Of a DNA stretch of 64,000 nucleotides, positions 1 to 16,014 are shown in pieces. Under the pieces are notes generated by a model. The model had not been told where the DNA came from. It made no database searches and worked only from the letters and a program-made list of their open reading frames with translations. Origin of the DNA: Candidatus Dormiibacterota bacterium (GTDB lineage Bacteria > Chloroflexota > Dormibacteria > Aeolococcales > Aeolococcaceae); NCBI GenBank assembly GCA_963716365.1, contig OY970307.1, forward strand, positions 1,551,253-1,615,252. The letters run 5' to 3'. The position numbers were made by a program, and so were the translations under genes. Every line of letters starts with the position of its first letter. The first letter of the stretch is position 1.

Positions 1-2
1 GG

Positions 3-656
3 ATCGCGTGCGCGGTCCCGTTGTTCGTCTATCTCTTTGTCGGCAAGGAGTACTACCCGGCGCCGACCATTCCGATCGTCATGGCAGCCGGCTTGATCGC
101 ACTCTCGCATCTCAAGCGCCCGCGACTGAGATCGTGGCTCGTGGCGGGCGTCGTTGTCGCGAGCCTCATCGATCTCGTCGCACTCGCGAAGATCACCATC
201 CCGACGACGCCGGCGGACCGCATGCATGCCAGTGGACTCGACAGCCTGGATTCGGATGACGCGTCGACTGTTGGCTGGGTATCGATCACGCAGCAGATGA
301 CGCGGATCTACGGCGCGCTCTCCGCCTCGGAGCGGGCCACGACCGTGATCGTGTCGTCTGATTACGGTGTCACCGGTGCGCTGCAGATCTACGGGAATTC
401 GCAGGCGCTCCCGCAGAGCTACAGCCCGCAGTTGAGCGACTACTACTGGCTCCCGCAACACGTGGTGGCGACCGACGTCCTGATGGTCGGTTACAACCCG
501 TCCGATATCAGATTCATGTGCACGTCAGCCACAGTCGTTGCGCATCTCACCATCCCGTTCCACGTGGTCAACCTGGAGTCGGGCTCTCCCGTGACGTTCT
601 GCACGCTCAACGCGCCACTCACCAGCGTGTGGGTGCGGCTCAAAGAGTTCTCGTAG
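3..656 (+). CDS. GT39/ArnT-like (PMT_2 family) integral membrane glycosyltransferase, C-terminal fragment; 5' end lies outside the window
   Basis: The reading frame is open from nt 3 to the stop at 654-656. The C-terminal region (VIVSSDYGVTGALQIYG...YYWLPQ) resembles the periplasmic C-terminus of ArnT/PMT_2-type GT-C transferases and of the 48310..50529 protein in this window. Confidence 0.5.
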   Translation: MACAVPLFVYLFVGKEYYPAPTIPIVMAAGLIALSHLKRPRLRSWLVAGVVVASLIDLVALAKITIPTTPADRMHASGLDSLDSDDASTVGWVSITQQMTRIYGALSASERATTVIVSSDYGVTGALQIYGNSQALPQSYSPQLSDYYWLPQHVVATDVLMVGYNPSDIRFMCTSATVVAHLTIPFHVVNLESGSPVTFCTLNAPLTSVWVRLKEFS

Positions 657-766
657 TCTGGTCGTACTCCCCTCCACCTCAATATACCATCGCGTCCGGG
701 GCTTGCGGCAAGCCGGGGGGTGTGGTGCAGAGTGTCGTGGCACGCGTTGGATTCCAGGAGCAATGT

Positions 767-2215
767 ATGTCCGAACATGCCGTGGTGATCGCCGGCGGCG
801 GTCCGACCGGGATGATGCTTGCAGCGGAGCTGACGTTGGCAGGGACCGACGTGGTCATCGTCGAGCGACGCCCGAGCTTCAAGCTCGAGAGCTCGCGCTC
901 GCGAGGGCTGCACTCCCGCACCATCGAAGTGCTCGACCAGCGCGGTGTGGCGGAGCGCTTCCTCGCCGAGGGGAAGGCGGTGCAGGTGCAGTCGTTCGCC
1001 GGCGTCCCGCTGAGCATCGCTGACTTCCCCACCAGACACAACTACGGGCTCGCGCTGCTGCAAAGTCATTTCGAGCGCATCATGTCGGGCTGGCTCGACG
1101 AGCTTGGTGTGCGCATCCTGCGCGAGCGCGAGGTGACTGGTTTCGCGCAGGACGAGAGCGGCGTTGACGTCGCGCTCTCGGACAGTACTTCGTTACGGGC
1201 GCAATATCTAGTGGGCTGCGACGGGGGCCGCAGCGTTGTGCGCAAGGTTGCCGGCATCGACTTCGCGGGCTGGGACGCAACCACATGCTGGATCCACGCG
1301 GAAGTGGAGATGGACCAGATGCCGGAATTCGGACTGCGTGGCGGTGGCGGCATCGGCCCGGCCGAGGAAGGACGCGTGGGCCTCACCCTGATCGAACCGG
1401 AGACAGATCGCACCGACGAGCCCACGCTGGACGATGTGCGCGCAGCGCTCATCCGCGTCGACGGAACGGACCACGGGGTACACAACGCTCGCTTCATCGC
1501 TCGCTTCACCGATGCGACACGACAGGCCGTCGCGTATCGCAGCGGGCGCGTGCTGGTTGCAGGAGATGCGGCACACGTGCACGCCCCGATGGGTGGTCAG
1601 GGACTGAACCTCGGTGTTCAGGACTCGGTCAACCTGGGCTGGAAGCTGGCGCAGGTCGTGAGCGGAGCCTCTCCGGTGGAACTCCTCGACACGTATCACG
1701 CGGAGCGTCATCCGGTCGCGGCAAGAGTCCTGCAGAACACCATGGCACAGCGAGCACTCGGCGCAACGGATGCGAGGTCCATTGCACTCCGCGACACTTT
1801 GGCGGAACTGCTGCACATGGACGAGCCGCGCAAACACATCGCAGGCATGATCTCGGGACTCGACATTGCGTATGACCTCGGCGAGGGACATCCGCTGTTG
1901 GGGCGTCGCATGCCCGACCTGGACTTGACCACCGCGGATGGCATCGTCCGCGTGTTCTCGTTGTTGCGCCGCGCGCGGCCGGTGCTGATCAATTTCGGTG
2001 CAGCCGGCGCTCTCAACATTGCGCCGTGGGCCGGCAGCGTTCAGCGCGTCGATGCCTCGTATGCCGGGATGTGGGAGCTTCCGGTGCTTGGTGAGGTCAG
2101 CGCGCCGACCGCCGTATTGGTGCGTCCCGATGGACACGCATCATGGGTTGGCGATGGCACCGATGCGGGCCTGCGCGAGGCGCTCACAACGTGGTTCGGC
2201 GACGAGGTGGCGTAG
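767..2215 (+). CDS. FAD-dependent aromatic-ring monooxygenase, PheA/TfdB family, rifampin monooxygenase (Rox)-like
   Basis: The 482-aa protein starts MSEHAVVIAGGGPTGMMLAAEL (GxGxxG FAD fold). It has the GCDGGRSVVRK and GDAAHVHAPMGGQGLNLGVQD motifs of group A flavin monooxygenases and a C-terminal thioredoxin-like domain as in Rox. The annotated 5' extension from 518 is rejected because the conserved N-terminus begins at 767. Confidence 0.8.
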   Translation: MSEHAVVIAGGGPTGMMLAAELTLAGTDVVIVERRPSFKLESSRSRGLHSRTIEVLDQRGVAERFLAEGKAVQVQSFAGVPLSIADFPTRHNYGLALLQSHFERIMSGWLDELGVRILREREVTGFAQDESGVDVALSDSTSLRAQYLVGCDGGRSVVRKVAGIDFAGWDATTCWIHAEVEMDQMPEFGLRGGGGIGPAEEGRVGLTLIEPETDRTDEPTLDDVRAALIRVDGTDHGVHNARFIARFTDATRQAVAYRSGRVLVAGDAAHVHAPMGGQGLNLGVQDSVNLGWKLAQVVSGASPVELLDTYHAERHPVAARVLQNTMAQRALGATDARSIALRDTLAELLHMDEPRKHIAGMISGLDIAYDLGEGHPLLGRRMPDLDLTTADGIVRVFSLLRRARPVLINFGAAGALNIAPWAGSVQRVDASYAGMWELPVLGEVSAPTAVLVRPDGHASWVGDGTDAGLREALTTWFGDEVA

Positions 2216-2476
2216 CTCAGCTCGCGGAGGGATCGCCCACCGAGGATGGGCCGTTTCGGCTTGCGGACGCCGGTGATGAAGCGCGAGACGAAGGGCTCGC
2301 CGGCACGGAGCGCGACATCGGTCCGGCTCACGGTCGTCGCGCGGACTTTGATGAGGACCTCGTCGTCCTTGGGCACAGGCCGGTCTACGTCTCCCAGGCG
2401 CAGAACGTCCGGCGGCCCGTATGGATCGTGGACAACCGCTCTCATGCGACACGGCACGATGGCACGGTTCGGAGTC

Positions 2477-3121
2477 TCATCGTCCGAACGCCCAGGCCAT
2501 CATGAGCGGGAACTCATCCCGCCACAGCCGGGCACCGTGCGACACCTCGCGCCGGTTCATCACGACGTCGGCACCTGCATCGCGCAGCGCGACTTCCCAG
2601 CGGATCGCGTTCTCGAGGAAGAACGGCTCGAGCGTGCCGCCAAAGAGATACACGCATGGCAGGGAGCTCGGCATCGCAGGTGGTGGTCGGTACCCGCCGC
2701 CCGGTGAGCCGGCGACCACGACGCCGTAGATGTCCGGGTGGCGAAGGCCAAGGGCCAGCGCGAGCTCTGCTCCTGCCGAGTAGCCGAACACAGCCGTCCG
2801 GTCGGTGGCGAGCGCGACCCCGAAACGGGACTCTGTCCAACGACGGACGTCCTCGACGAAGAATCGCTCATGGGCTGAAAACCGTTCCGCGTCGAAGACC
2901 GGCGTGTACTCGTGAAGGCGCGGCATCTCTTCGGGGAGCGAATGGACGCCGACGATCATCGTGGGCGGGACGTCGGCTGCTTCGAGGACGCTCCCCCACG
3001 TCGCGAGGCCCTGACCGTCGCCTGCGAAGACGATCGCCTCAGGCGGATCCGAAGGGACGTACACCGAGACCTGGCGACCACCGTCGTACTCGAGCAGCGT
3101 CTCGGTGACGAGCTCTCCCAC
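2477..3121 (-). CDS. alpha/beta-hydrolase fold esterase (putative esterase / enterochelin-esterase-like family)
   Basis: 214 aa. Contains GYSAGAELAL (GxSxG nucleophile elbow) and the overall pattern of the 'putative esterase' family. Confidence 0.65.
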   Translation of the reverse strand: MGELVTETLLEYDGGRQVSVYVPSDPPEAIVFAGDGQGLATWGSVLEAADVPPTMIVGVHSLPEEMPRLHEYTPVFDAERFSAHERFFVEDVRRWTESRFGVALATDRTAVFGYSAGAELALALGLRHPDIYGVVVAGSPGGGYRPPPAMPSSLPCVYLFGGTLEPFFLENAIRWEVALRDAGADVVMNRREVSHGARLWRDEFPLMMAWAFGR

Positions 3122-3567
3122 TACCGCGCCGTCGCACCGTCGATCGTCGTCCCGAGCAGCCGGAGCAGCAGGGCATCAAACGTCTGCAACTCGGCGGGCG
3201 TCAGGCCCGCAAATGAGCGAGCGACAACACCGTCAACGATCTTGCCTCCTGCAACGCGCAGCTCACGGCCCTTGGCGGTCAGCTGGTGATGCACGGCTCT
3301 GCCAGGAGCCGGTACGCGTTTGATGAGTTCCCGCTCGATCAGGCGGCCAGCGAGCGCGCCAAATGACTGATCGGTCTGGAACGTGAGTTGCGCGAGATCG
3401 TGGAGCGAGGCGTCAGGGTTCTGATCGAGGTGGCGCAGCGCATCCCACTGAACGAGCGTGATGTCGAGTGCCGCCAGCTCCGCATCCAGGGCGCGGTGAT
3501 GGCGCATCTGGAGCCGCTTGACCGAGAGTCCCACCTCTTGGAGTGGTCGCGTCACACCGTCGAGCAT
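3121..3567 (-). CDS. MarR family transcriptional regulator
   Basis: 149 aa starting from the internal ATG (MLDGVTRPLQEV...). It has winged-HTH MarR signatures (LTLVQWDALRHL...). An AAGGAGG RBS sits about 13 nt upstream on the minus strand. The 180-aa ORF-track version adds an unlikely N-terminal extension. Confidence 0.75.
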   Translation of the reverse strand: MLDGVTRPLQEVGLSVKRLQMRHHRALDAELAALDITLVQWDALRHLDQNPDASLHDLAQLTFQTDQSFGALAGRLIERELIKRVPAPGRAVHHQLTAKGRELRVAGGKIVDGVVARSFAGLTPAELQTFDALLLRLLGTTIDGATAR

Positions 3568-3588
3568 AGCAAATAGTAAGCCTCCTTG

Positions 3589-3618
3589 TATAAGCTTGCT
3601 TTTCTCAGTGTGCTTATA
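3589..3618. promoter_or_regulatory. AT-rich inverted repeat TATAAGC-N16-GCTTATA in the divergent marR / hydrolase intergenic region (candidate MarR operator and promoters)
   Basis: The sequence tataagcttgcttttctcagtgtgcttata has 7-bp perfect arms. It is the only AT-rich stretch in this neighbourhood and lies between the divergent MarR gene and the hydrolase at 3657. Confidence 0.4.
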
Positions 3619-3656
3619 TACACTCCCCGAGATACCGCCGAGACACGAGGAGGCTG

Positions 3657-4463
3657 ATGCCAATGACCACGACCATCACCCAACAACTCACCGTCGAAGG
3701 CATCGGCCCTGTCGATGTGACGGTCTCCCAGAACGGAGCCGGACGCACCTTTCTGCTGCTCCACGGTGGCGCCGGACCCCAGTCAGTCGCCGGTTTCGCG
3801 GAGTTGCTCGTCGCGAGCGAGCCGGCGCGCGTCATCACCCCGACGCACCCCGGCTTCGGGGGCACCGCGCGCCCTGAAGCACTCTCCACGGTCCCAGCCC
3901 TGGCGCGGCTGTACGTCAGCCTCCTCGATGCGCTCGATCTCCACAACGTGACCGTGATCGGCAACTCCGTCGGTGGCTGGATTGCCTCCGAAATGGCCCT
4001 GCTCGGCTCAGCGCGCATCAGCGCTCTCGTGCTCGTGGACGCGGTCGGCATCGAGGTCGACGGCCATCCCGTCGCGGACTTCTTCGCGCTGACCCTCGAT
4101 CAGGTGTCCCAGCTGAGCTACCACGACCCGATCAAGTTCCGGATCGACCCTTCGACGATGCCGCCGGCACAGCAGCAGGCGATGGCCGGCAACCGCGCGA
4201 CCCTTGCGGTCTACGCCGGGGCGGGATCGGGATCGATGCTCGATCCGACGCTGCGCGATCGCCTCGGCGCGGTCTCTGTGCCGGCGCTCGTGCTGTGGGG
4301 CGACAGCGATCGGATCGTCGATCCGGAGTATGGCCGGGCGTTCGCGGCGGCGATCCCGAAAGCTCGGTTCGAGCTGCTCCCCGACACCGGTCACGTTCCG
4401 CAACTCGAGACCCCGGAACAGCTGCTCGCCGCAATCTGGAGTTTCGCGGAGAGCAACACCTGA
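3657..4463 (+). CDS. alpha/beta hydrolase fold protein
   Basis: 268 aa with an HGG oxyanion motif (LLLHGGAGP), a GNSVGG nucleophile elbow, and C-terminal Asp/His. A GAGGAGG RBS lies 7 nt upstream. Confidence 0.8.
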   Translation: MPMTTTITQQLTVEGIGPVDVTVSQNGAGRTFLLLHGGAGPQSVAGFAELLVASEPARVITPTHPGFGGTARPEALSTVPALARLYVSLLDALDLHNVTVIGNSVGGWIASEMALLGSARISALVLVDAVGIEVDGHPVADFFALTLDQVSQLSYHDPIKFRIDPSTMPPAQQQAMAGNRATLAVYAGAGSGSMLDPTLRDRLGAVSVPALVLWGDSDRIVDPEYGRAFAAAIPKARFELLPDTGHVPQLETPEQLLAAIWSFAESNT

Positions 4464-4738
4464 GTTCGTGACGACTTTGACGGCGCCTGCGCCGACGCTT
4501 AGCCCGTGCGTGTGGCCACGCGTCGTGATGGAAGGGTCGACGAAATCGGCTCGGACCTGATGTTCAATACGCCGGCTTGCTCGGAGGCGCTCAGGATCGC
4601 GCTGACTCCGGCGGAGCCCTAGGGAGACTGGACGGACGCCCGGCGATTCGTTACGCGATCGTCGGCGATCGTGCGATCGCATCCCGCCCTCTCCGGCGAC
4701 GATCGAATCCTTCCGAGAAACCCATATCCCTTCCTGAT

Positions 4739-4780
4739 GGCGACGCCCACGTGTCATGACCCACACGCTGGGCGTCGCCG
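4739..4780 (-). terminator. GC-rich imperfect inverted repeat immediately 3' of the 4800..6524 gene (candidate terminator hairpin, no U-tract)
   Basis: ggcgacgcccacgtgt...acacgctgggcgtcgcc has arms matching 16/17, centred about 30 nt beyond the stop at 4800. Confidence 0.3.
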
Positions 4781-4799
4781 TCCCCCCTTCCCAACGGCG

Positions 4800-6524
4800 T
4801 CAGGCGCCGACGGTCACTCCTGAAGCCTCGAGCCGATCGAAGACCAGTCGCACTGCCATCGATCCCTCACCGATCGCGGTCGCAACGCGCTTGATGGATC
4901 TGCTCCTCGCGTCGCCGACGCAGAAGACACCCGGCCTGCTCGTCTCGAGAAGCAGTGGTTGCTGATCGAGCGTGCTTGCAGGGACGTCACTGCCGGTGAG
5001 CAGGAAACCGTCTTCATCGGCCGCGAGCTGGCCGTTGAGCCATTGTGTGCACGGCATCGCGCCGATGAACGTGAAGAGGCCGCACGTTGGATGCGTGACG
5101 ATCTTACCCGAGCCGTTGTCGCGCAACGTGACGCCTTCGAGTTCCCCGTCGCCGAGCAGCCCGATGACCTCGGTTTTAGGAGCAACGGAGATGCGTGGGT
5201 CGCGCGCGATCTCGTCGAGCAGATAACGGGACATCGAGTGGCTCAACCCATCAGCGCGGATCGCAATGAGCACCTGGGTGCACCACCGCGAGAGAAAGAG
5301 CGCCGCCTGGCCCGCCGAGTTGCCGCCACCAACGATCACCGCCGGTCCACCGGAACAGGCCTGCGCCTCCATCTGGGTCGCCGCGTAGTAGACGCCGACG
5401 CTTTCGAAGTCCGCCAGATGATCGAGCGGCAGCCTGTTGTAGCGCGCTCCGGTGGCGATGATGACCGCGCGCGCGGAGATCACCTCGCCACCGTCGAGCG
5501 TCACGCGATGCGAATCGCCGGTCGACGACAGCGCGGCAGCCCCCGCGCCGAGCTTGATCCGCACCCCGAACTTCTCCGCCTGCAACGCCGCGCGTTCCGC
5601 CAACTCCTCGCCGGAGAGACCGGCGGGGAACCCCAGGTAGTTCTCGATGCGTGACGACGTGCCTGCCTGACCGCCGAGCGCCGTATTCTCGACGATGACG
5701 GTCCGCATCCCCTCGGACGCGCCGTACACACCGGCCGCGAGCCCGGCGGGACCACCGCCGACCACGAGCAGGTCGCAGTCGTCGGAGGCTGCGCTGGCGG
5801 ACGGTGCTGCGGTGAGACCGAGCGCGACCAGCAGCGCGTGATCGGTTGGGTTGGAAAGCAGTGCACCACCGGGCGCGATGACGAGCGGCAGGTCGTCGGG
5901 TGAGACATCGAGCTGGCGAAGCGTCTGCTCGGCCTCCGGCATGCTTTCGAGCTCGAGCCATCGAAAGGCGACGCGATTCCGGGCGAGGACATCGAGCAGC
6001 CGCCGCGTCTTGCGGTCGAACCGCGACCCCACAAGCGTAAGTCCCAGTCCCATCTGCGTCAACCGAACGTGGCGGAGCAGGAACGCCCGCAGGAGGTAGT
6101 CACTCAGGTCGGCTTCCTCGGCCATGATGGTCCGCACCTGCTCGATGGGAACTCGGAGGACGCGCCCGGGCTGCGTCGCCACCGCCGTCAGGAACACGCG
6201 CTGACCGGTCAGGAGCCCTTTCTCACCAAGGAACTCTCGCGCCCCGTACGAGATGATCACCTGCTCCTCGGGCTTGCCGTAGTGGTCGACGATGTCGACC
6301 GCGCCCTCGAGAATCACGACCAGGTCGTACGTGGTGTCACCGTCGGCAAACAGCAGATCGCCTTGTCCCACCTGGGATTCGTCGCCATACCGGCGCAGGG
6401 TCGCGAGCTGCAACTCACCAAGGAGCGGGCGCGCGTCTGCGGCATCGGGCGGCGTGACGATGGGCGCGCCACGGACCGGATCGTGACGGGTCGCTACTGG
6501 TGTTTCTACGTGGTGGTCCGACAT
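4800..6524 (-). CDS. cyclic-nucleotide-binding domain protein fused to a thioredoxin-reductase-like FAD/NAD(P)H oxidoreductase
   Basis: 574 aa. The N-terminus has a CAP/cNMP-binding beta-roll (GDLLFADGD...GEKGLLTGQRV). The C-terminal half is TrxR-like (VVGGGPAGLAAGVY, GGGNSAGQAALFL, FCVGDA). The canonical CATC redox disulfide is replaced by ACSGG. Confidence 0.8.
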   Translation of the reverse strand: MSDHHVETPVATRHDPVRGAPIVTPPDAADARPLLGELQLATLRRYGDESQVGQGDLLFADGDTTYDLVVILEGAVDIVDHYGKPEEQVIISYGAREFLGEKGLLTGQRVFLTAVATQPGRVLRVPIEQVRTIMAEEADLSDYLLRAFLLRHVRLTQMGLGLTLVGSRFDRKTRRLLDVLARNRVAFRWLELESMPEAEQTLRQLDVSPDDLPLVIAPGGALLSNPTDHALLVALGLTAAPSASAASDDCDLLVVGGGPAGLAAGVYGASEGMRTVIVENTALGGQAGTSSRIENYLGFPAGLSGEELAERAALQAEKFGVRIKLGAGAAALSSTGDSHRVTLDGGEVISARAVIIATGARYNRLPLDHLADFESVGVYYAATQMEAQACSGGPAVIVGGGNSAGQAALFLSRWCTQVLIAIRADGLSHSMSRYLLDEIARDPRISVAPKTEVIGLLGDGELEGVTLRDNGSGKIVTHPTCGLFTFIGAMPCTQWLNGQLAADEDGFLLTGSDVPASTLDQQPLLLETSRPGVFCVGDARSRSIKRVATAIGEGSMAVRLVFDRLEASGVTVGA

Positions 6525-6636
6525 TCATGGCTCCGGTGCTGTCAGCCGGGGGCCGCGTGGCTCGCCTCGATCATAGGTCTCTCTCCTGGGATCTTGTCCC
6601 GGGGCGTCGCATCTGAGCTGACCAAACTGGAACCAT

Positions 6637-7692
6637 GTGGATGTGCGAATCGATGTGGGGCGCCCCGGGAATCTGACAGGCCGCCAGGCCGCTATCGCAG
6701 CGCTCGAGCGCATCGCACACATCCTCGAGCGCGAACAGGAGCCCACATACCGGGTGCGCGCTTTCCGCAATGCCGCCGCTGTCGTTCGTGCGCTCTCCGA
6801 CACGGAGTTGGAGGAGCGCGGCAGGCGCCGCACGCTGCAAAGCCTTGCGGGAATCGGGCCGGCGACCGCACGGGTCATCGAGGAGGTGCTTGCGGGTACG
6901 ATTCCGGCGTACCTCGAGCGCCTCGAAACAGAGGCCCCGCCGATACCGGCCGACGCGCTGGCACTGCGCGCGGCCCTGCGTGGTGACTGTCACGTGCACT
7001 CCGACTGGTCAGACGGCGGCAGCCCAATCGAGGAGATGGCTCGCACCGCTATCGACCTTGGACATGAGTACATGGTGCTCACGGACCACTCGCCGCGGCT
7101 GACGGTTGCGCACGGGCTGAGCATCGAGCGCCTCCGCGAGCAGCTCGACGTCGTGCGCGAGATCAACGAGCGGCTCGCGCCGTTTCGCATCCTCACAGGC
7201 ATCGAGGTCGACATCCTCGAGGATGGCGAGCTCGACCAGGAGCCGGACCTGCTCGCGCAGCTCGACGTCGTCGTCGCGAGCGTGCATTCCAAGCTGCGCA
7301 TGCCGGGTGCGGAGATGACACCGCGGATGATCGCCGCAATCCGCAACCCGCACATGGACATCCTTGGTCACTGCACCGGGCGGATGGTCGTCGGCCGCGG
7401 CCGGCCGGAGTCGGAGTTCGATGCCGATGCGGTGTTCGCAGCGTGTCGCGAGCATCACGTCGCCGTCGAGGTCAACGCACGCCCGGAGCGGCTCGATCCC
7501 CCGAAACGCCTGCTCACCCTCGCGATCGAGACCGGATGCCAGGTCGCCATCGACACCGACGCGCACGCGCCGGGTCAGCTCGAGTGGCAGCTACGCGGGT
7601 GCGAGCGTGCTGCCCTGTGTGGTGTTTCTGCCGATATGGTCATCAACACGATGCCAGCAGACGACCTCCTCGCGTGGACACGGGCGGGGTGA
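6637..7692 (+). CDS. PHP domain protein with an N-terminal PolX-like helix-hairpin-helix / 8-kDa region (PolX lacking the polymerase core)
   Basis: 351 aa with a GTG start. The N-terminus (YRVRAFRNAA...LAGIGPATARVIEEVL) is PolX-lyase/HhH-like. It is followed by PHP metal-binding motifs (HVHSDWSDG, LTDHSP, HS, DTDAH). Confidence 0.7.
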   Translation: MDVRIDVGRPGNLTGRQAAIAALERIAHILEREQEPTYRVRAFRNAAAVVRALSDTELEERGRRRTLQSLAGIGPATARVIEEVLAGTIPAYLERLETEAPPIPADALALRAALRGDCHVHSDWSDGGSPIEEMARTAIDLGHEYMVLTDHSPRLTVAHGLSIERLREQLDVVREINERLAPFRILTGIEVDILEDGELDQEPDLLAQLDVVVASVHSKLRMPGAEMTPRMIAAIRNPHMDILGHCTGRMVVGRGRPESEFDADAVFAACREHHVAVEVNARPERLDPPKRLLTLAIETGCQVAIDTDAHAPGQLEWQLRGCERAALCGVSADMVINTMPADDLLAWTRAG

Positions 7693-7693
7693 C

Positions 7694-8962
7694 TCAGGCT
7701 GGCGCGTAGCTTCTGAGCAATGGCTCCCAGTCCGCGTCGTGTGCACTCACGGTCCGTTGCGGTGGCACCACTGGTAGCGTCGACTTGAACCCCGCACCGG
7801 TGTCGAACGCAACGACGGTGTCGTCGGGCCCGATGGCCCCTTGACGGCGAAGCTCCGGCAGTGACGCGAACACTGCGGCGGTCTCGAGGCTCAGGAATCG
7901 GGCGCCGTGACTCGCCGCGAAAGCCTGCGTCGGTGCGAGCTCGGCCTCGGGTACCGCGATCGCCGTGCCGCCCGATGTGGTGATCGCTTCAAGGATGAGG
8001 AAGTCGCCGACGCTGCTCGGCACGCGCAAGCCTGCTGCCTCGGTCGTGGCGTCTTCCCAGGGCTCTGCGAATTGCTTGCCGGCGAGGAACGCGCGCACCA
8101 ATGGCGCGCAGCCCTCGACCTGAATGCCGACCATCCGCGGACGCGCAGCGCCGAGCAAACCCATCGCCTCGAGCTCCGCGAACGCCTTCCACATCCCGAT
8201 GAGGCCGGTCCCGCCACCCATCGGATAGACGATCACATCGGGCAGCGACCAGCCGAGGTCCTCCGCGAGCTCGATCCCCATCGTCTTCTTGCCCTCGACG
8301 CGATACGGCTCTTTGAGTGTGCTCAGGTTGAACGCGCCAGTGCGCTCCGCGATGCGCGCCGTCAACCGCCCGCAATCCGAGATGAGGCCGTCGACAAGGA
8401 TGAGATCGGCGCCGCACGCCGCGACCTCAACCTGGTTGACGACTGGGGCGTCGCTCGGCATGACGACCGTCGCCTGCAGGCCCGCGACGGCGGCATACGC
8501 GGCCAGCGCGCCGCCGGCATTGCCCGCCGACGGCATCACGAAGCGTGTGGCTCCAAGCTCTTTGGCGCGGCTCACGGCAACCGTCATGCCGCGTGCCTTG
8601 AACGATCCTGTCGGATTCAGGCTCTCTGCTTTCACGAGCAGCCGGCGGATCCCGTACGCAGCGCCAAGTCGTGGCGCCTCCAGCAACGGCGTCGAACCTT
8701 CACCCAGGGTGACGACGTTCGCCCAATCGCGCACCGGGAGAACCTCGCTCCACCGCCACACGCCGAGTGTGCGATCGCGACCGTTGTGCTGACGATCGCG
8801 CAGCGTGCTGGCCGCTTGCTCGAGGTCGTAGCGGGCGAGCAGCGGACGGCTGTCGGACGGGTCGACGGTCACCAGCTCGTCGGCCGAGTAGGAGATGTGA
8901 CTGAGCCCGCCCTCGAGGTGCGTCAGCGTGGAACCAGTCGCGCTGGTATCTACGTCGCTCAT
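7694..8962 (-). CDS. threonine synthase family PLP-dependent enzyme
   Basis: 422 aa. It has the PTGSFKARG lysine motif and a glycine-rich PLP loop (GNAGGALAAYAA), with a fold-type II PLP enzyme layout. Confidence 0.65.
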   Translation of the reverse strand: MSDVDTSATGSTLTHLEGGLSHISYSADELVTVDPSDSRPLLARYDLEQAASTLRDRQHNGRDRTLGVWRWSEVLPVRDWANVVTLGEGSTPLLEAPRLGAAYGIRRLLVKAESLNPTGSFKARGMTVAVSRAKELGATRFVMPSAGNAGGALAAYAAVAGLQATVVMPSDAPVVNQVEVAACGADLILVDGLISDCGRLTARIAERTGAFNLSTLKEPYRVEGKKTMGIELAEDLGWSLPDVIVYPMGGGTGLIGMWKAFAELEAMGLLGAARPRMVGIQVEGCAPLVRAFLAGKQFAEPWEDATTEAAGLRVPSSVGDFLILEAITTSGGTAIAVPEAELAPTQAFAASHGARFLSLETAAVFASLPELRRQGAIGPDDTVVAFDTGAGFKSTLPVVPPQRTVSAHDADWEPLLRSYAPA

Positions 8963-9032
8963 GACGCCTCGCTCCCGGCACTGCTCGGGACGCCGACAAT
9001 CGAAACGTGGCTCATGTTCGGACTATAGACGC

Positions 9033-9548
9033 GTGATCCTCCCCAAGATCCGTGATCCACGGTTCATCACAGTGCGTCGCGGCGGTACCCTCCGGGACAC
9101 CGATCATCACCTCCTCGCGTTGTGGGCGGCTGATTGCGCGGAGCACGTGCTGCACCTCTTCGAGCAGGTACGTCCGGACGACGACCGTCCACGCCGAGCG
9201 ATCGAGCTGGGCCGGTCGTGGGCCCGCGGCGAGATCACGTGGTGGGAGGCGCGCACCGCGGGCGGCCATGCGAATGGGGCGGCCAGAGACCTGAGCGGGG
9301 CACCACGGCATGCCGCCTACGCTGCCGGTCAGGCCGCAGCGGTGGGCCACGTGGCGGCGCATGAGCTCGGGGCAGCTGCCTACGCCATCAAGGCCGTGCG
9401 AGCGGCAGCAATCGCGGACGACGGCGTGGCGGCGGGCCGTCTAGAGTGCCAGTGGCAGCACGACCAGCTCCCCAAGGAGATCCGAGCACTCGTCCTCGAC
9501 GACGAGCGGCTCCGCAACGAGTTGTGTTGGTTTGCCTTCGATTGCTGA
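9033..9548 (+). CDS. hypothetical all-helical protein (resembles 'putative immunity protein' / Imm-5-like family)
   Basis: The motif LALWAADCAEHVLHLFE is followed by an Ala-rich helical region. The start was chosen at an in-frame GTG after the thrC-like stop; the 8928 start would overlap the upstream gene by 35 nt. Family assignment is from memory. Confidence 0.4.
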   Translation: MILPKIRDPRFITVRRGGTLRDTDHHLLALWAADCAEHVLHLFEQVRPDDDRPRRAIELGRSWARGEITWWEARTAGGHANGAARDLSGAPRHAAYAAGQAAAVGHVAAHELGAAAYAIKAVRAAAIADDGVAAGRLECQWQHDQLPKEIRALVLDDERLRNELCWFAFDC

Positions 9549-9563
9549 CGCGGGCCGCGTCCG

Positions 9564-10091
9564 TCAGCGACCGCCCCGCCGCGTCGTCCCGTCAAGCAGC
9601 TCCCTCGCGATGTCGAGATGACCGGCATGACGTGACGTCTCCTCGATCATGTGCAGCACGACCCAGCGAACATTCGGTGGCACGAAATCGCCGTGTGTGC
9701 CGACCGGGCGCGCTGAGAGCGGTGTCATCGCGAGTACCGCCTCTGACGCTGCGCATTGGTCGCGGTAGAAGGCCACGACCGACGCGGACGGCTCGTCGCT
9801 TGTGAACACGACGGTCAATGGGTCGTACGGCGGCTGATCCTCATCGAGATCACCGGGAAGTTCCGGCTGCTTGCCGCATACGACACCCTGGAACCAGTGC
9901 CACTCGGCGCCGCCCAGATGCTCGAGCAGCCCCGCAGGCGTCCACCCCGTTGGCACAACGGACCGATGCCAATCCGCGTCGTCCATTCCCTCGACAATCG
10001 CCAATACCGACTCGCGCTGGCCGCGCAGAAATTCCCGGAGCATTTCATCGTCGGGTTCATCATTCACAGGAACTTCCACTCTCCTGCGCAC
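9564..10091 (-). CDS. DinB_2/DUF664 (mycothiol-dependent transferase-like) family protein
   Basis: 175 aa with HLGGAEWHWF and HMIEETSRHAGHLDIARE (His-triad region typical of DinB/YfiT-like proteins). Confidence 0.6.
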   Translation of the reverse strand: MRRRVEVPVNDEPDDEMLREFLRGQRESVLAIVEGMDDADWHRSVVPTGWTPAGLLEHLGGAEWHWFQGVVCGKQPELPGDLDEDQPPYDPLTVVFTSDEPSASVVAFYRDQCAASEAVLAMTPLSARPVGTHGDFVPPNVRWVVLHMIEETSRHAGHLDIARELLDGTTRRGGR

Positions 10092-10186
10092 TGCTGCTCA
10101 CGATATGCGAGGGCACGCGTAGCCGTTAGTCCTCAACGAATTGCACGATTTGGCGGCATTCTATCGCTTCCCATCCGCTTCGCACC

Positions 10187-10942
10187 TCAGCTGCGCGGAC
10201 GGGAGGCACTCAGCATTCGGACCGTGAAGGGGAGAATTGATTGCTGTGCCAGCTCGCCGCAGAACACGGTGAAGTGGAGACCATCGGAAAATCGGCACTG
10301 CTGACCGTCCACAAAGCTCGCGAAGTGGCCCTGCGGCGAGACAATGCTGTCGAGATTCTCGACCGCGACCCGACCCGTCGCACCGGCGGCCGCAGCCGCA
10401 AGCAACGCATTGATCTCTTCGTGGCGTGTAGGACTTGCGACGGCGGCGAGTGATCCGTCGGGGTTGGTCACATTGGCATCCGCGATGCTGAGCAGCACGA
10501 CTGGGATGCCTCCTTGTCCCAGCGTTGAGAGCAGCAACGACATGCGCTGGCTGACATATGCATCGTATGCGGCCTCGCCGAGATGCTCGATGCGTCCGCC
10601 GATCTTCACGTCAAACAAGTCGCGCCACCCCAACTCGACGACGACCACCTGTGCCCCGACGGCCACCTCATCCTGGCGCCAGTGCTCGATCTCCGTGTTG
10701 CATTCCGCCGGCAACGGAGTCCAGCCGGTGCTCTGGGTCAGGTCGAACTCGCTGGGAAGTCCGAACCCGCAACCGGGCAACGGGTCCAAAAAAATCTCCG
10801 TGTTGTAGCGCTCCTCGTCCTGCATCAGCCCCACACCGAGTGTCGCTGCAAGCGAGTCGCCGATCACCAATACGTGCGTCGGCGGGCACAGCGGAAACGT
10901 GATCGAGGCACTCCCGCTGTAGGCGCTCGGGACCGGGATCAC
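10187..10942 (-). CDS. SGNH/GDSL hydrolase domain protein
   Basis: VIGDSLA (GDS block I), a Gly block and a C-terminal DGLH motif. It lies in the same reading frame as the upstream acyltransferase, separated only by one TAG codon. Confidence 0.7.
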   Translation of the reverse strand: MIPVPSAYSGSASITFPLCPPTHVLVIGDSLAATLGVGLMQDEERYNTEIFLDPLPGCGFGLPSEFDLTQSTGWTPLPAECNTEIEHWRQDEVAVGAQVVVVELGWRDLFDVKIGGRIEHLGEAAYDAYVSQRMSLLLSTLGQGGIPVVLLSIADANVTNPDGSLAAVASPTRHEEINALLAAAAAGATGRVAVENLDSIVSPQGHFASFVDGQQCRFSDGLHFTVFCGELAQQSILPFTVRMLSASRPRS

Positions 10943-10954
10943 GTTGGCGGGGAT

Positions 10955-12325
10955 CTAACTCGGCGGTGGCGGGGCGACGATTTCGTTGGCTGTGTCGGTT
11001 GCGACGACACTGCACGGCGGCGCCGACGTCGCCGACGCCGGCACGCCCGGGACGTTTGTCGGCGGCGGAGGCGGCACGAATGTCACGGCAGCAGCGTTTG
11101 TCGCAGCAACGAGGCTCGCTGCGGCGAGCGCAGCGCCGGCTGGCGCGAGCGCGCGCACACTCCAGCGCGGCAACCGCTGACGGCGAATGGGCTGCTCAAT
11201 AGCGAAGAAGGAGACCGTTGCCACAGCGAATGTCACGCCGACGCGGACGACGAACAGCGCAAGCCCGCTGACGCCGATCAACTCCTGCGTGAGCCAGACG
11301 AATAGGGGAAAGTGCCAGAGGTAGAGGCCGTAAGAGATGTTCCCGATTGCTCGCATCGGGGGAATCGCGAGTAGGCGTCCGAGCGGCCAATGCGGCAACG
11401 CGGTGATGCCGAGAATGATCGTCGCGACGCACACGTCGAAGCCGAGAAACCCGAACCGATACAGCCCGTTCGAGCCGCTGCTCAGCGCGGAGATCGACCA
11501 GAGAAGCGCAAGGCCACCGGCGATAGTGAGGACGCCCAGGACCGCGTGTGAGACCCGTGGATATGCACTTCGTCGCCGCCGTCGCGCTGGACGTGTGACG
11601 GGGCGCAACGCAAGGCCGAGCGCAAGTGCACACCCGACCAGCAAGGCCTGAGCGCGAGTATCTGTGCCGAGATACACACGGTTGACTCCATCTGGACCAA
11701 CCAGGAGGGCCATGTCCACAGCGGACGCGAGCGCGCCGGCCAAGGAGATATACAGGAGGAGACGAAGCGGTCGGCGGGGATCGGTTGCAGCGTTGGCGGT
11801 CCGCTTGACGATCCAGAGGACGGCGAGCACCACCAACGGCCAGATGATGTAGAACTGCTCCTCGATCGCCAGCGACCAGGTGTGCTGGAGCGGTGAGACA
11901 GGTCCCGTCGCACCGAAGTACGTGCTGCCCGCGATGAGTTGCTGCCAGTTCCCAACGTAGAAGAGTGCGCCAAGCCCGCTCGCAAGGAGATCGGGCACCG
12001 ATTTCGTCGGACCCGCGATGGTCTGATAGATCCCGACCACCGCGATCACCACAAAGAGGGCCGGGAGCAGGCGACGTGCGCGACGAGCCCAGAAATGTTT
12101 GAGTGCAATCGACGACGTGTTCCGCATTTCGGCGATGAGCAACGACGTGATGAGGAATCCGGAGAGCACAAAGAACACTTCCACGCCGAGAAAGCCGCCG
12201 CCGGCCCACCCCACTCCGGCGTGGAACAGGATGACGGCGATCACGGCGACCGCCCTCAGGCCATCGAGTGCGGGCATGTGGCCCAGATGAGCCCCGCGCG
12301 CCGTCCCTCCCCTACGCTGCGACAT
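10955..12325 (-). CDS. acyltransferase family 3 (OatA-like) integral membrane protein
   Basis: LDGLRAVAVIAVILFH near the N-terminus, multi-TM, 456 aa from ATG 12325. The annotated 12415 start adds a Gly/Arg-rich extension. Confidence 0.75.
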   Translation of the reverse strand: MSQRRGGTARGAHLGHMPALDGLRAVAVIAVILFHAGVGWAGGGFLGVEVFFVLSGFLITSLLIAEMRNTSSIALKHFWARRARRLLPALFVVIAVVGIYQTIAGPTKSVPDLLASGLGALFYVGNWQQLIAGSTYFGATGPVSPLQHTWSLAIEEQFYIIWPLVVLAVLWIVKRTANAATDPRRPLRLLLYISLAGALASAVDMALLVGPDGVNRVYLGTDTRAQALLVGCALALGLALRPVTRPARRRRRSAYPRVSHAVLGVLTIAGGLALLWSISALSSGSNGLYRFGFLGFDVCVATIILGITALPHWPLGRLLAIPPMRAIGNISYGLYLWHFPLFVWLTQELIGVSGLALFVVRVGVTFAVATVSFFAIEQPIRRQRLPRWSVRALAPAGAALAAASLVAATNAAAVTFVPPPPPTNVPGVPASATSAPPCSVVATDTANEIVAPPPPS

Positions 12326-12392
12326 AGCAGTGCATCGTAGGGGCATCCCGGCCGATGCGGCTCCTTGACGCCATCCGGGTTTCTTCCGGCGC

Positions 12393-12917
12393 CTACGCCC
12401 CGAGCTCGAGGCCATCGAGAGCCCCGCCTTGCCGCGTCAGCCCAATGTGACCGGGGTCGTCGAGGGGTTCCCGCCATGCCTTCCCCCGCACGATTTGCCC
12501 CACGTTTGCGTGGCTGACGCCGAACGCAGATGCAATGGATCGGTACGTCGCTCCGTAATTCGCCATGAGCCTGATTGCAAACACGTCATCGCCGGTAAGC
12601 CTCGAATTGGCGTGACGTTCGCCACGGTTTGAGCGGCGATTCAGCATCTGCTGATCGAATGTTGTCCAACGACAGTTGCCCGGTTCGTAATTGCCCTCGT
12701 TGTTGATCCGATCCAGGGAGAGGTCGTCCGGGCACGCACCCATGTCGGCGAAGAAGTACTCGAAGCGGCGCCAGCGATTGCAAACGCTGATGCCGCGCCC
12801 GCCATAGCGTGACCAGTCCGCACTCGAGCGATTCGTACAACGCGACAGCATGGCCTTCCAGGCGTGGTACGTGCGCGTGCCGTCACGAGCTGCTTGTCCG
12901 TGGCTGAGTGGCACCAC
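12393..12917 (-). CDS. phage-type HNH endonuclease (mycobacteriophage-like YGGRGI...DRINNEGNYEPGNCRW family)
   Basis: The motif string TYHAWKAMLSRC...YGGRGISVCNRWRRFEYFFADMG...LSLDRINNEGNYEPGNCRWTTFDQQ matches the HNH/AP2-like endonucleases common in actinophages. The start was trimmed to GTG 12917 so that it does not overlap the tRNA. Confidence 0.6.
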   Translation of the reverse strand: MVPLSHGQAARDGTRTYHAWKAMLSRCTNRSSADWSRYGGRGISVCNRWRRFEYFFADMGACPDDLSLDRINNEGNYEPGNCRWTTFDQQMLNRRSNRGERHANSRLTGDDVFAIRLMANYGATYRSIASAFGVSHANVGQIVRGKAWREPLDDPGHIGLTRQGGALDGLELGA

Positions 12918-13022
12918 CGCAGTGAAGCTTCCTGGCGCGCCCTCACTGCGGACAGTCGCCGGCCGCCCGGACCTCTTGATGCACCCATCCGAAGCCTCTG
13001 GGGGGACCGATTTGGAAGGGTC

Positions 13023-13094
13023 AGCGGGAGACGGGGCTCGAACCCGCAACTTCAACCTTGGGAAGGTTGCACTCTACCATTGAGTTACTCCCGC
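13023..13094 (-). tRNA. tRNA-Gly (anticodon CCC)
   Basis: The minus-strand sequence GCGGGAG-TA-ACTCAATGGTAGAGT-GCAACC-TTCCCAA-GGTTG-AAG-TTGCGGGTTCGAGCCCCG-TCTCCCGC-T forms a cloverleaf with a 7-bp acceptor stem, a CCC anticodon in a 7-nt loop and a TpsiC GTTCGAG box. CCA is not encoded. Confidence 0.85.
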
Positions 13095-13202
13095 GGGTAT
13101 TTGGTCTCTTGGAGTGTTTCCTTTGACAAAGGGGAGTAGTGGATCGATGCCCCAGGCCGGCTGAAACCCTCGGCGAGGGAGCCATCGTAGACCGCTGCAG
13201 CG

Positions 13203-14153: not shown

Positions 14154-14406
14154 AGTGCTCTCCTGACAAGTGAAGAAATGGAATGGAGTGTTCCCTGAGT
14201 ATGCGGATTGCCACGAAGCAACAGCCTCGAGGAACTCCGCTCCAAAGGCTCCTTTCCTTCCTGCATTCGCCGGCGGTTCTCTGGTGCACTCGTCGGGAAG
14301 GGCATCATCAACGCGCGACGGACATTCGGCGATTGCCTCGCAGCGGCTTCAATGTCGTCGATGTGCTGCTCGTTTCGTTGCAGCGGCTCTGACATCATCA
14401 CACTGC

Positions 14407-14850: not shown

Positions 14851-14906
14851 CCCGGTCGTGACCTGGTCGTCACGATAGGCCCGGCGACCCGGGGCATGAT
14901 GCAGCG

Positions 14907-16007: not shown

Positions 16008-16014
16008 CCGCGGG

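Follow-up and report, generated by a model that had tools for sequence, protein, structure and literature searches.

A CNB-, glutaredoxin- and thioredoxin reductase-fold fusion protein that lacks CxxC redox centres

The gene at positions 4800-6524 of the 64-kb stretch of DNA analysed here (hereafter, the window) belongs to a very large family of three-domain proteins, of which it is a typical member, and which is catalogued in databases and experimentally unstudied. The protein looks like a fused redoxin-thioredoxin reductase (TrxR) relay whose four relay cysteines have all given way to other residues. Our tentative reading, to which we give somewhat less than an even chance, is that such a three-domain, cysteine-less relay would function as a ligand-gated NAD(P)H flavoprotein and pass electrons to a non-disulfide acceptor.

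The coding sequence is complete on the minus strand, running from ATG to stop (574 amino acids plus the stop codon in the ORF list), and all features of the protein located below lie on this strand. In the AF2 model of the whole protein (mean pLDDT 87.3, pTM 0.84), a CNB-fold sensor is followed by a Cys-less glutaredoxin fold and by a TrxR fold without CxxC, which together would form a three-domain flavoprotein. The N-terminal tail (residues 1-27; 6444-6524) was predicted to be disordered (pLDDT <50) and was weakly conserved in the family alignment. The first-pass annotation had described a CAP/cNMP-fold domain fused to a TrxR-like flavoenzyme, and both parts were recovered by Pfam (cNMP_binding, PF00027, residues 52-136, 45.3 bits with the cut-off at 27.5; Pyr_redox_2, residues 251-554, 93.9 bits). 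The third domain, of glutaredoxin fold (residues 160-236), had been overlooked. One residue (L38 versus S) separates the window protein from the public sequence P0001 (ENA ERZ25039518, contig_1816).

Family size and database annotation

The fusion is neither rare nor new. At least 8000 homolog candidates were obtained in the protein search, and 1301 representatives of 50%-identity clusters contained the N-terminal module at E<=1e-10. The phyletic survey that had been proposed earlier, for which GGQAGTSSRIENYLGFP was used as the search pattern, identified the architecture in the genomes of at least 600 species, which belong to many phyla of bacteria and also include some archaea, and the fusion is hence a common one. 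It was also found on 148 plasmids, with some of the proteins labelled 'cyclic nucleotide-binding domain-containing thioredoxin-disulfide reductase'. This RefSeq class already names the fusion, and the corresponding JGI label is 'thioredoxin reductase (NADPH)'. One protein of the class, WP_145709047.1 (Rhodococcus sp. PD04), is 47.6% identical to the window protein over residues 26-568 (95% of the length) and has the same three domains in the same order, as well as the patterns YAATxxEAxxC and GS-x-x-S/D-x-x-T, with no structural difference between the two. Judged by these sequence features, the window protein is a member of this class. No published function or biochemistry was found in the searchable full-text literature, either for the fusion or for its pairing with zf-UBP proteins (see below).

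Public pipelines recognise the family and mislabel it as thioredoxin reductase. The result for the window is mainly a correction, and its gene is an ordinary family member. The family itself appears to be worth biochemical attention, given the strict selection on its cofactor motifs, the disappearance of the relay cysteines, the presence of a sensor and the frequent zf-UBP pairing. Once defined, the acceptor and the ligand would correct thousands of annotations and could show a new repurposing of the disulfide-reductase scaffold. The conservation counts given below refer to a set of diverse homologs (n=95) and a set of close homologs (n=120).

The thioredoxin reductase-fold module

The FAD/NAD(P)H module with the fold of low-Mr TrxR occupies residues 248-567 (4824-5783) and retains the two-domain fold with the GxGxxG, GGGxxA and GD motifs. 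Both dinucleotide-binding motifs are kept, as had been reported in the first-pass annotation, and their coordinates were verified. In the FAD motif GGGPAG (residues 256-261; 5742-5759), G256, G258, P259 and G261 were invariant in alignment A1, and in the NAD(P)H motif GGGNSAGQAA (residues 399-408; 5301-5330), G399, N402, A404, Q406 and A407 were present in 95/95 diverse members. The segment GGQAGTSSRIENYLGFP (residues 284-300; 5625-5675) appeared in the family alignment as a family-specific form of the TrxR FAD-domain motif GGQ...ENxPGFP, with G284, G285, Q286, I293, E294, N295, Y296, G298, F299 and P300 invariant. The C-terminal FAD-binding GD motif region, GVFCVGDARSRSIKRVATAIGEGSMA (residues 532-557; 4854-4931), aligns with GVFAAGDV...TSAGTGCMA of the E. 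coli enzyme, and its G537, D538, R540, S543, K545, R546, G552, E553 and G554 were invariant in the family alignment. The GxGxxG, GGQ, ATG, GGGNSAGQAA, R423 and GD motifs are invariant or nearly so among sequences that are 38-100% identical. At the sequence level, purifying selection acts strongly on the glycine motifs for FAD and NAD(P)H, and a flavin/NAD(P)H function is therefore plausible; from these motifs, we infer that the protein binds FAD and NAD(P)H.

The nature of the reductant is less certain. In E. coli TrxR, the H175-R176-R177...R181 pocket binds the 2'-phosphate of NADPH. The hhalign mapping and family counts identified here R423 and a motif M431-S-x-Y-L435 (5220-5258), in which R423, M431, S432, Y434 and L435 were all present in 95/95 members, and position 424 was G, R, S or A and position 428 A, S or G. 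R423, the equivalent of R176, is the sole invariant residue of the pocket; the equivalents of H175, R177 and R181 (hhalign) are I, A and S in the window protein and variable across the family. The reductant is uncertain because only one basic residue of the 2'-phosphate pocket is invariant. The closest solved structure is that of T. acidophilum TrxR, an enzyme that reportedly does not use NADPH.

The partial degeneration of the 2'-phosphate pocket, together with the replacement of the four relay cysteines throughout the family, would also agree with an inert pseudoenzyme, that is, a dead relay that serves as a sensor of NAD(P)H or redox state, as a scaffold or as a decoy for thioredoxin-like partners. 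The Actinomycetota chaperone operons that contain Trx2 (see below) would fit such a regulatory or binding role. However, motifs that contact FAD and NAD(P)H and stay near-invariant at 38-100% identity point to selection on cofactor chemistry, or at least on cofactor binding, and other CxxC-less proteins of the same fold (the FNR and IruO entries) were deposited as oxidoreductases. We consider a pseudoenzyme to be rather improbable.

Low-Mr TrxR (TrxB; E. coli 1cl0/1tde, T. acidophilum 3cty) has a CxxC centre, whereas the window protein has none and carries ~245 additional N-terminal residues, which make up two more domains. Three phmmer alignments to solved TrxRs and a profile-profile alignment by hhalign mapped C135-A-T-C138-D139 of the E. 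coli enzyme on A381-A-T-Q384(M385)-E386, within the segment YAATQMEAQAC (residues 380-390; 5355-5387), so that C135 is exchanged for A381, C138 for Q384 or M385 and D139 for E386. The earlier statement that CATC is replaced by ACSGG was not borne out by this mapping, in which ACSGG lies downstream of the site and its cysteine, C390, falls on E. coli Y143. BLASTP and MAFFT alone pair C390 with C138 at the cost of a 6-residue insertion and a 5-residue deletion, whereas the phmmer/hhalign mapping needs only a 1-residue gap, places D139 on the conserved E386 and fits the predicted helix 384-389. The placement of C390 as a surviving C138 was not preferred for these reasons, and the TrxR sequence C-A-T-C-D is most likely aligned with A381-A-T-Q(M)-E386. 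Among the diverse homologs, Y380 was found in 91/95, A382 in 94/95, E386 in 91/95 and C390 in 93/95, and C390 was also present in 120/120 close homologs. A CxxC motif was found at neither redox site in any of the 95 diverse or 120 close homologs (215 sequences in all), and realignment with E. coli TrxB recovered no proper CxxC pair in the window protein. The loss of CxxC at the TrxR site, which had been claimed before, could thus be confirmed in the window protein and in both homolog sets.

The conservation of C390 might be taken to suggest a single-cysteine thiol reductase, in which C390 would be the lone redox thiol, as in CoA-disulfide reductase, NADH peroxidase and YpdA bacillithiol-disulfide reductase. 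The target could be a mixed disulfide of a low-molecular-weight thiol (for example, mycothiol) or the Cys/Zn site of a zf-UBP partner. Such an activity would be consistent with the BLASTP/MAFFT placement of C390 on C138, the cysteine close to the flavin in the E. coli enzyme, with mycoredoxin-1 as the nearest relative of the redoxin-fold domain, with a monothiol-like C-x-x-T in the 13/95 diverse members that have Cys at position 170, and with the mycothiol-S-transferase-family gene in the vicinity. On the other hand, phmmer and hhalign put C390 on Y143, 5-6 residues past the position of C138 and at the far end of helix 384-389, where it would probably be too distant from flavin C4a, and the redoxin active site is Cys-free in the window protein and in the whole close clade. 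This reading appears to be quite improbable.

With all relay cysteines replaced, the window protein, as judged from the alignments, cannot carry out the canonical dithiol reduction of thioredoxin, and the annotation 'thioredoxin-disulfide reductase' is therefore a misnomer. A conventional thioredoxin reductase would agree with the automatic JGI and RefSeq labels, with the TrxR equivalog TIGR01292 as the best NCBIfam match and with a Trx2 gene that adjoins the fusion gene in 7 loci. However, the TIGR01292 match scored 183 bits, far under the cut-off of 343.45, and the redox-active CxxC is missing from all 215 sequences; on this sequence evidence the conventional reading is effectively refuted, with hardly any probability left to it.

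The TrxR-type ferredoxin-NADP+ reductases (B. subtilis YumC/FNR2 3lzw, C. tepidum 3ab1 and S. aureus IruO 5twb) have the TrxR fold without CxxC, as does the window protein. Their flavin donates electrons to an acceptor other than a disulfide, and they would provide the best functional analogy. The comparison with ferredoxin-NADP reductases made in the first-pass annotation holds for this arrangement, but the enzyme half is nearer to TrxR/AhpF, in sequence as well as in structure, than it is to the ferredoxin reductases of TrxR type.

The glutaredoxin-fold and sensor domains

According to DSSP of the models, the family profile and Foldseek, residues 160-236 (5817-6047) form a glutaredoxin/mycoredoxin-fold domain (beta-alpha-beta-alpha-beta-beta-alpha) that has no redox cysteines. 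A single-sequence search of this linker region against PDB gave no match, and the redoxin fold emerged only when the family profile and a structural fold comparison were used. The profile matched M. tuberculosis mycoredoxin-1 (2lqo, E 3e-7), and the top Foldseek matches for residues 160-236 were all Grx, NrdH, Mrx1 or Trx (probability 1.00, TM 0.6-0.7). The former redoxin active site corresponds to GSRFDRKT (residues 166-173; 6006-6029), where the family-profile alignment puts C-G-Y-C of mycoredoxin on D170-R-K-T173 in the window protein and on S-x-x-T in most of the family. Neither CxxC nor CxxS is present after beta-1 in the window protein. Position 170 was S in 68, C in 13 and D in 10 of the 95 diverse members and position 173 was T in 78, whereas D170 and T173 occurred in 120/120 close homologs. 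The family alignments also revealed a conserved proline in L212-P213-L214 (5883-5891), located where the thioredoxin fold has its cis-Pro; P213 was found in 94/95 diverse and 120/120 close homologs and was invariant in alignment A2. The domain thus has its fold and this proline in common with mycoredoxin-1, NrdH and glutaredoxin, but glutaredoxins are free-standing, whereas the redoxin-fold domain of the window protein is set between two other domains.

A comparison was also made with fused redoxin-TrxR proteins, including AhpF, the AhpF homolog TIGR03143, plant/cyanobacterial NTRC and thioredoxin-glutathione reductase (TGR). AhpF, NTRC and TGR combine a redoxin-fold domain and a TrxR module on a single chain, as does the window protein. 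However, their two modules both contain redox-active cysteines that form a dithiol relay, whereas both centres are replaced in the window family, which also has an extra CNB-fold domain ahead of the redoxin-TrxR part.

This sensor domain of the CAP/cNMP-binding fold covers residues 33-157 (6054-6428), where Pfam PF00027, the family profile and the AF2 secondary structure describe a beta-roll followed by a long C-helix (residues 138-157). The first-pass annotation had proposed a cAMP- or cGMP-gated NAD(P)H-flavin oxidoreductase, in which a second messenger would be directly tied to redox. In line with this proposal, the match to the cNMP-binding HMM was over the gathering score, the family profile of the sensor matched PKG/PKA/Epac/CRP domains (E 1e-22 to 1e-10), G100-E101 of the phosphate-binding cassette were conserved in the family, and R109, which is present in the window protein, was paired with the canonical Arg in a single pairwise alignment (2pqq). 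However, the HMM alignment to PKG cassettes and the homolog counts suggested that the cassette (residues 98-116, FLGEKGLLTGQRVFLTAVA; 6177-6233) is degenerate, with G100-E101 kept and the Arg-Ser/Thr-Ala clamp not conserved. The R-[ST]-A clamp of PKG/PKA cassettes fell on V110-F111-L112, and R109 sits one position ahead of the canonical clamp site. R109 itself was present in only 48/95 diverse members and 82/120 close homologs and was swapped for S, T, K or H in 38/120 close homologs, although the adjoining residues were invariant. It is followed by bulky residues (V, F/Y), whereas the canonical cassettes aligned there have R-S-A. Furthermore, the best single-sequence PDB match of the sensor was NtcA, a 2-oxoglutarate sensor (E 3.5e-6), and no cyclase was found near the gene or among the ten largest other ORFs of the window. 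Given this degenerate cassette and a clamp Arg that the family does not conserve, regulation through cAMP or cGMP is doubtful, and we regard the gating of the enzyme by these nucleotides as unlikely, although R109 and its pairing in the 2pqq alignment leave some probability of cNMP binding by the window protein itself. The ligand of the sensor is probably other than cAMP or cGMP. A degenerate cNMP clamp is also known from other CRP/FNR-family members that bind non-cNMP ligands, and in this respect the window sensor resembles non-cNMP CNB domains.

The beta-roll and long C-helix are also found in the effector domains of the CRP/FNR family, especially NtcA, and both NtcA and the window sensor carry LLTGQR and a C-helix Arg. 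Unlike the CRP/FNR family, the window protein has no helix-turn-helix output domain, and its output would be the enzyme-like module of the same chain. The C-helix contains the basic residues R146...R151-H152 (6069-6089); in the homolog alignments, R151 was invariant and position 152 was Arg in 90/95 diverse members. In the pairwise alignment, R151 was aligned with R128 of NtcA, a 2-oxoglutarate contact (PMC6243067). The same alignment showed that the R87 region of NtcA is missing from the window protein, owing to a 2-residue deletion. R87 is the second 2-oxoglutarate contact of NtcA, and R151 presumably also corresponds to the Arg pair R122-R123 in CAP from E. coli. Since CAP shares such an R-R doublet, the R151 match does not identify the ligand. 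With this match not diagnostic and the R87 region deleted, NtcA-like 2-oxoglutarate sensing was rejected.

Possible mechanism and gene neighbourhood

For the preferred reading, a ligand-gated NAD(P)H flavoprotein, we propose the following mechanism. The protein, probably a homodimer, would still bind FAD and oxidise NAD(P)H, and the flavin would hand electrons straight on to an acceptor that is not a disulfide. Candidates for this acceptor are small redox proteins and metal centres, for example in the neighbouring zf-UBP protein, as well as small molecules. As to the N-terminal domain, it would be an allosteric gate that acts via the long C-helix and the redoxin-fold domain.

A zf-UBP gene (PF02148) was found near the fusion gene in 25/82 loci (~30%) from at least six phyla, mostly directly adjoining it, and the two genes overlap by 23 bp in Rhodococcus. 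The 64-kb window contains no zf-UBP gene, other TrxB gene or thioredoxin gene, and zf-UBP is absent from ~70% of the family loci. In some Actinomycetota, the fusion gene lies within chaperone operons with Trx2 (dnaK-grpE-dnaJ-clpB-trx2). The Rhodococcus operon combines dnaK-grpE-dnaJ-cbpM-clpB-trxA-zfUBP with the fusion gene, whereas the window gene is accompanied by none of them. A highly speculative extension, to which we attach little probability, is that the family might represent an unrecognised class of ligand-gated electron-transfer flavoproteins that arose from a glutaredoxin-TrxR relay as its relay cysteines were all exchanged, and in which a non-cNMP metabolite would gate the NAD(P)H-dependent action on the zf-UBP metal-binding protein in a proteotoxic/oxidative stress response. 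Through this action, the metal centre might be reduced or the release of zinc controlled, and the stress-response part is based on the link of the family to the dnaK-grpE-dnaJ-clpB-trx2 operons in Actinomycetota.

The possibility of a defence-system effector (Pycsar/CBASS-like) was rejected, as PADLOC reported 0 families and the neighbourhood contained no cyclase. The adjacent gene at 6637-7692 (351 aa), described before as a divergent PolX/PHP repair gene, is indeed divergent and encodes HHH_8 and PHP domains, but no polymerase domain was detected in it. This PHP neighbour was retained at 82% identity and gone at 68%; in view of such shallow synteny and of no recurrence in 81 loci, it was rejected as a functional partner. 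A mycothiol-S-transferase-family gene is located 3 kb from the fusion gene.

Domain architecture and the lost redox centres

The open reading frame proposed in the first-pass annotation (4800-6524, reverse strand) was borne out, running from ATG to stop and encoding 574 residues. Its N-terminal domain does match the cNMP-binding HMM (Pfam cNMP_binding, residues 52-136, 45.3 bits against a gathering score of 27.5), and Pyr_redox_2 covers residues 251-554 (93.9 bits). Both dinucleotide motifs reported earlier were located, GGGPAG at 256-261 and GGGNSAGQAA at 399-408. Among NCBIfam models, the TrxB equivalog TIGR01292 ranked first, though its 183 bits fall short of the 343-bit cut-off; AhpF-homolog and AhpF models came next. 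Compared with solved structures, the C-terminal 325 residues were closest to low-Mr thioredoxin reductases (TrxRs; 4zn0, E 5e-39) and then to AhpF (E ~3e-31), whereas TrxR-type ferredoxin-NADP+ reductases (FNRs) reached only E 1e-12 to 1e-8. The FNR-like character claimed before holds for the missing CxxC, but in sequence and structure the enzyme half is nearer to TrxR and AhpF.

Three phmmer alignments to genuine TrxRs and a profile-profile comparison in hhalign (95 family members, four TrxRs) gave concordant maps of the redox site (the E. coli TrxB sequence used was 100% identical to 1cl0). E. coli C135, A136, T137 and C138 fall on A381, A382, T383 and Q384, and M385 is a one-residue insertion. 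E386 takes the place of D139, the acid-base catalyst directly after the second cysteine. C390, the single cysteine of the ACSGG segment first regarded as the replacement of CATC, is placed on Y143 and not at a redox-cysteine position. BLASTP and MAFFT instead paired C390 with C138, which required inserting six residues and deleting five. In the predicted structure, a short helix (384-389) runs straight into a strand (394-399), and we prefer the phmmer/hhalign mapping because it fits these elements with almost no gaps. Judged from alignment and model, the CxxC equivalent would be A381-A-T-Q(M)-E386 rather than ACSGG.

In either alignment the interchange cysteine C135 is replaced by Ala and the CxxC is missing, as had been proposed. 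A CxxC at this site occurs neither in the 95 diverse members (38-64% identity) nor in the 120 close ones, so the loss is family-wide and not a decay of this one gene. A conventional TrxR, the class of the best structural matches, is extremely improbable on these counts. Residues conserved around the lost site include Y380 (91/95), A382 (94/95), E386 (91/95) and C390 (93/95, and 120/120 close members). A thiol mechanism working through C390 alone could draw on this conservation, but with C390 on Y143 in the preferred mapping we consider it very unlikely. Two of the 95 diverse members carry Cys at the C135 position and may represent evolutionary intermediates toward the Cys-less state.

The earlier two-domain description was incomplete: a third, glutaredoxin-fold domain occupies residues 160-236, predicted as a beta-alpha-beta-alpha-beta-beta-alpha unit. 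A single-sequence PDB search with this linker region gave no match; a profile of 23 family linkers matched M. tuberculosis mycoredoxin-1 (2lqo, E 3e-7), whose C-G-Y-C aligned to D170-R-K-T173. When the domain was modelled separately (pLDDT 87), Foldseek returned glutaredoxins, NrdH, mycoredoxin and thioredoxins only (probability 1.00, TM 0.6-0.7). Proline is retained at the cis-Pro position (P213, 94/95). The diverse members mostly have Ser at position 170 (68 of 95, against 13 with Cys and 10 with Asp) and Thr at position 173 (78 of 95), while all 120 close members share the D170...T173 pattern. The build is that of fused redoxin-TrxR relays such as AhpF, NTRC and thioredoxin-glutathione reductase; in contrast, both redox centres are replaced here. 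Cys170 gives 13 of the 95 diverse members a monothiol-like C-x-x-T, and these too may be intermediates toward the Cys-less state. In one homolog of 881 residues (P0197), the CNB (sensor-fold) and Cys-less redoxin module lies at the C-terminus, and inspection by eye suggested that the protein also has a region resembling NhaA antiporters and a thioredoxin domain of DsbA type whose CPFC is intact; the sequence stops directly after the redoxin fold, perhaps truncated by a contig end.

Cofactor motifs, sensor domain and proposed mechanism

The family alignments show little or no variation in GxGxxG, GGQ, ATG, GGGNSAGQAA, R423, M431-S-x-Y-L435 and the C-terminal GD region. R423, the R176 equivalent, is the one invariant counterpart in the family of the H175-R176-R177...R181 residues of E. 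coli TrxR, presumably its pocket for the NADPH 2'-phosphate, so either NADH or NADPH could be the reductant. Binding of FAD and NAD(P)H would be retained. An inert pseudoenzyme serving as sensor or scaffold, a reading that would suit the loss of both cysteine centres better than it suits the preserved cofactor motifs, seems quite unlikely.

The N-terminal family profile matched PKG, PKA, Epac and CRP domains (E 1e-22 to 1e-10), and the CNB-fold assignment is solid. In the phosphate-binding cassette, G100-E101 is conserved, and HMM alignment to PKG cassettes (...G-E-x-A-L-L-x-x-x-P-R-S-A-T...) places the R-S-A clamp on V110-F111-L112. The sole Arg nearby, R109, is present in 48 of 95 diverse members; in the close clade this position is R in 82, S in 21, T in 11, K in 2 and H in 1, while T106, G107, Q108 and E101 are invariant, which is unlike the behaviour of an essential clamp. 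As aligned, the cassette is non-canonical and degenerate. The fold behind the proposed control by cAMP or cGMP is present, but these ligands look less likely. One pairwise alignment (2pqq) sets R109 opposite the canonical clamp Arg, by which the protein itself could still bind a cyclic nucleotide; with the clamp otherwise on V-F-L and R109 so variable, genuine cNMP gating is unlikely. No cyclase was found among the largest ORFs of the window.

The top single-sequence PDB match of the sensor domain was NtcA, a 2-oxoglutarate sensor (E 3.5e-6). The R151-R152 doublet presumably corresponds to R122-R123 of E. coli CAP, and the region around NtcA R87, which we take to be a second 2-oxoglutarate contact, is deleted in the target protein. 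For these reasons, the alignment of the invariant R151 with NtcA R128, which contacts 2-oxoglutarate (PMC6243067), is not diagnostic.

Our own reading of the mechanism is inferred and tentative, at somewhat below even confidence. As the dithiol relay is missing, the flavin would hand electrons straight to a non-disulfide acceptor, as it does in the independently derived TrxR-type FNRs. Allosteric gating, and probably dimerisation, would fall to the CNB-fold domain by way of its long C-helix and the redoxin-fold domain. In genomes having it, a small zf-UBP zinc-finger protein would be the best partner or acceptor candidate. On the whole, the earlier observation is confirmed with corrections to the redox-site position, the number of domains and the PHP neighbour, and its interpretation is partly supported.

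Distribution and recurring neighbours of the fusion family

Homolog searching gave at least 8000 candidates; among the 120 matches listed, nearly all were full-length fusions, mostly labelled 'thioredoxin reductase (NADPH)' (JGI) or 'FAD-dependent oxidoreductase' (NCBI), and the closest named relatives were Candidatus Dormibacteraeota and Acidimicrobiales MAGs. With just the two N-terminal domains as query, exhaustive searching yielded 1301 representatives of 50%-identity clusters (E<=1e-10). Scanning one genome per species, we found the family in at least 600 genomes, including Actinomycetota, Acidobacteriota, Verrucomicrobiota, Gemmatimonadota, Bacteroidota, Cyanobacteria, Gammaproteobacteria, Deinococcota, Myxococcota, Spirochaetia and Thermoproteota archaea, and on 148 plasmids. 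Several plasmid copies are named 'cyclic nucleotide-binding domain-containing thioredoxin-disulfide reductase' in RefSeq; a Rhodococcus member so annotated has the same CxxC-less motifs as the target protein. A literature search found no study of the family. We are almost certain of the architecture and family assignment. The target gene is another member of an already-named, functionally uncharacterised class: the family is of moderate interest, and the single gene is ordinary for the window.

The sole recurring neighbour is the Cys/His-rich zf-UBP protein (about 90-115 aa; PF02148, 49 bits), whose gene lies near the fusion gene, mostly directly adjoining, in 25 of 82 fetched loci (about 30%) from at least six phyla. 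It is upstream in L014, L015, L026, L047, L050, L057, L076 and L078, downstream in L011, L019, L021, L027, L035, L036, L039, L052, L056, L060 and L069, and shares 23 bp with the fusion gene on a Rhodococcus sp. PD04 plasmid (L082:5688-5954). No paper tying bacterial zf-UBP proteins to the family was found in the literature search. A zinc-ribbon Trx2-type thioredoxin gene is found near the fusion gene in seven actinobacterial loci, immediately upstream in six. Chaperone-gene clusters were seen in about six loci; the annotated Rhodococcus operon starts dnaK-grpE-dnaJ-cbpM-clpB, and a dnaK-grpE-dnaJ-cbpM-clpB-trx2-zfUBP cluster with the fusion gene last is present in several Actinomycetota (L082:1-5691; also L007, L009, L014, L015 and L026). 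This cluster, plasmid-borne in Rhodococcus, has the appearance of an accessory operon for heat or proteotoxic stress.

Local context and comparison with a public contig

No zf-UBP or Trx2-type partner was found within the 64-kb window, and PADLOC gave no defence-system match. An alpha/beta hydrolase gene converges on the target gene, and an HHH_8+PHP gene (6637-7692, forward strand, 351 aa) diverges from it. The latter had been called a PolX/PHP repair protein; the divergent PHP gene is there, but no polymerase-beta-like nucleotidyltransferase domain was detected, which suggests a stand-alone PHP phosphoesterase carrying a helix-hairpin-helix head rather than a full PolX. It is kept in an 82%-identical relative, missing in a 68%-identical one and did not recur among 81 family loci, indicating shallow synteny.

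Further genes encode a MarR regulator, an esterase, an aromatic-ring hydroxylase, a threonine-synthase-like PALP enzyme (7694-8962, reverse), an adjoining Imm5-like putative immunity protein (8928-9548, forward; PF21805, 125 bits; the longest ORFs of these two genes share 35 bp at the 5' ends), and a mycothiol-S-transferase-family DinB protein (PF04978; 9564-10091, reverse), 3 kb from the target gene. Together with a related locus (L084), in which DinB_2 adjoins a PIG-L deacetylase gene, the last may point to use of mycothiol, or of a comparable low-molecular-weight thiol, by the organism. This is noteworthy because mycoredoxin-1 is the nearest match of the dead redoxin domain.

Window positions 1-16524 differ from a 1.27-Mb metagenomic contig (ENA ERZ25039518 contig_1816; L001) at 18 of 16,524 positions. 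Two differences, at 6039 and 6412, fall in the target gene, and only that at 6412 alters the protein (L38 in the window, S in the contig). The aromatic-ring hydroxylase gene contains clustered differences (1679-1680 and 1724-1727). Public gene calls place a phage-integrase-family gene (L001:2372-3322, about window 13200-14150) about 7 kb from the target gene, between acyltransferase and AMP-binding enzyme genes. At 10955-10957 (reverse strand), the window has TAG where the public contig has CAG, which divides a public 696-aa acyltransferase_3 and DUF459/SGNH protein into ORFs at 10187-10942 and 10955-12415.
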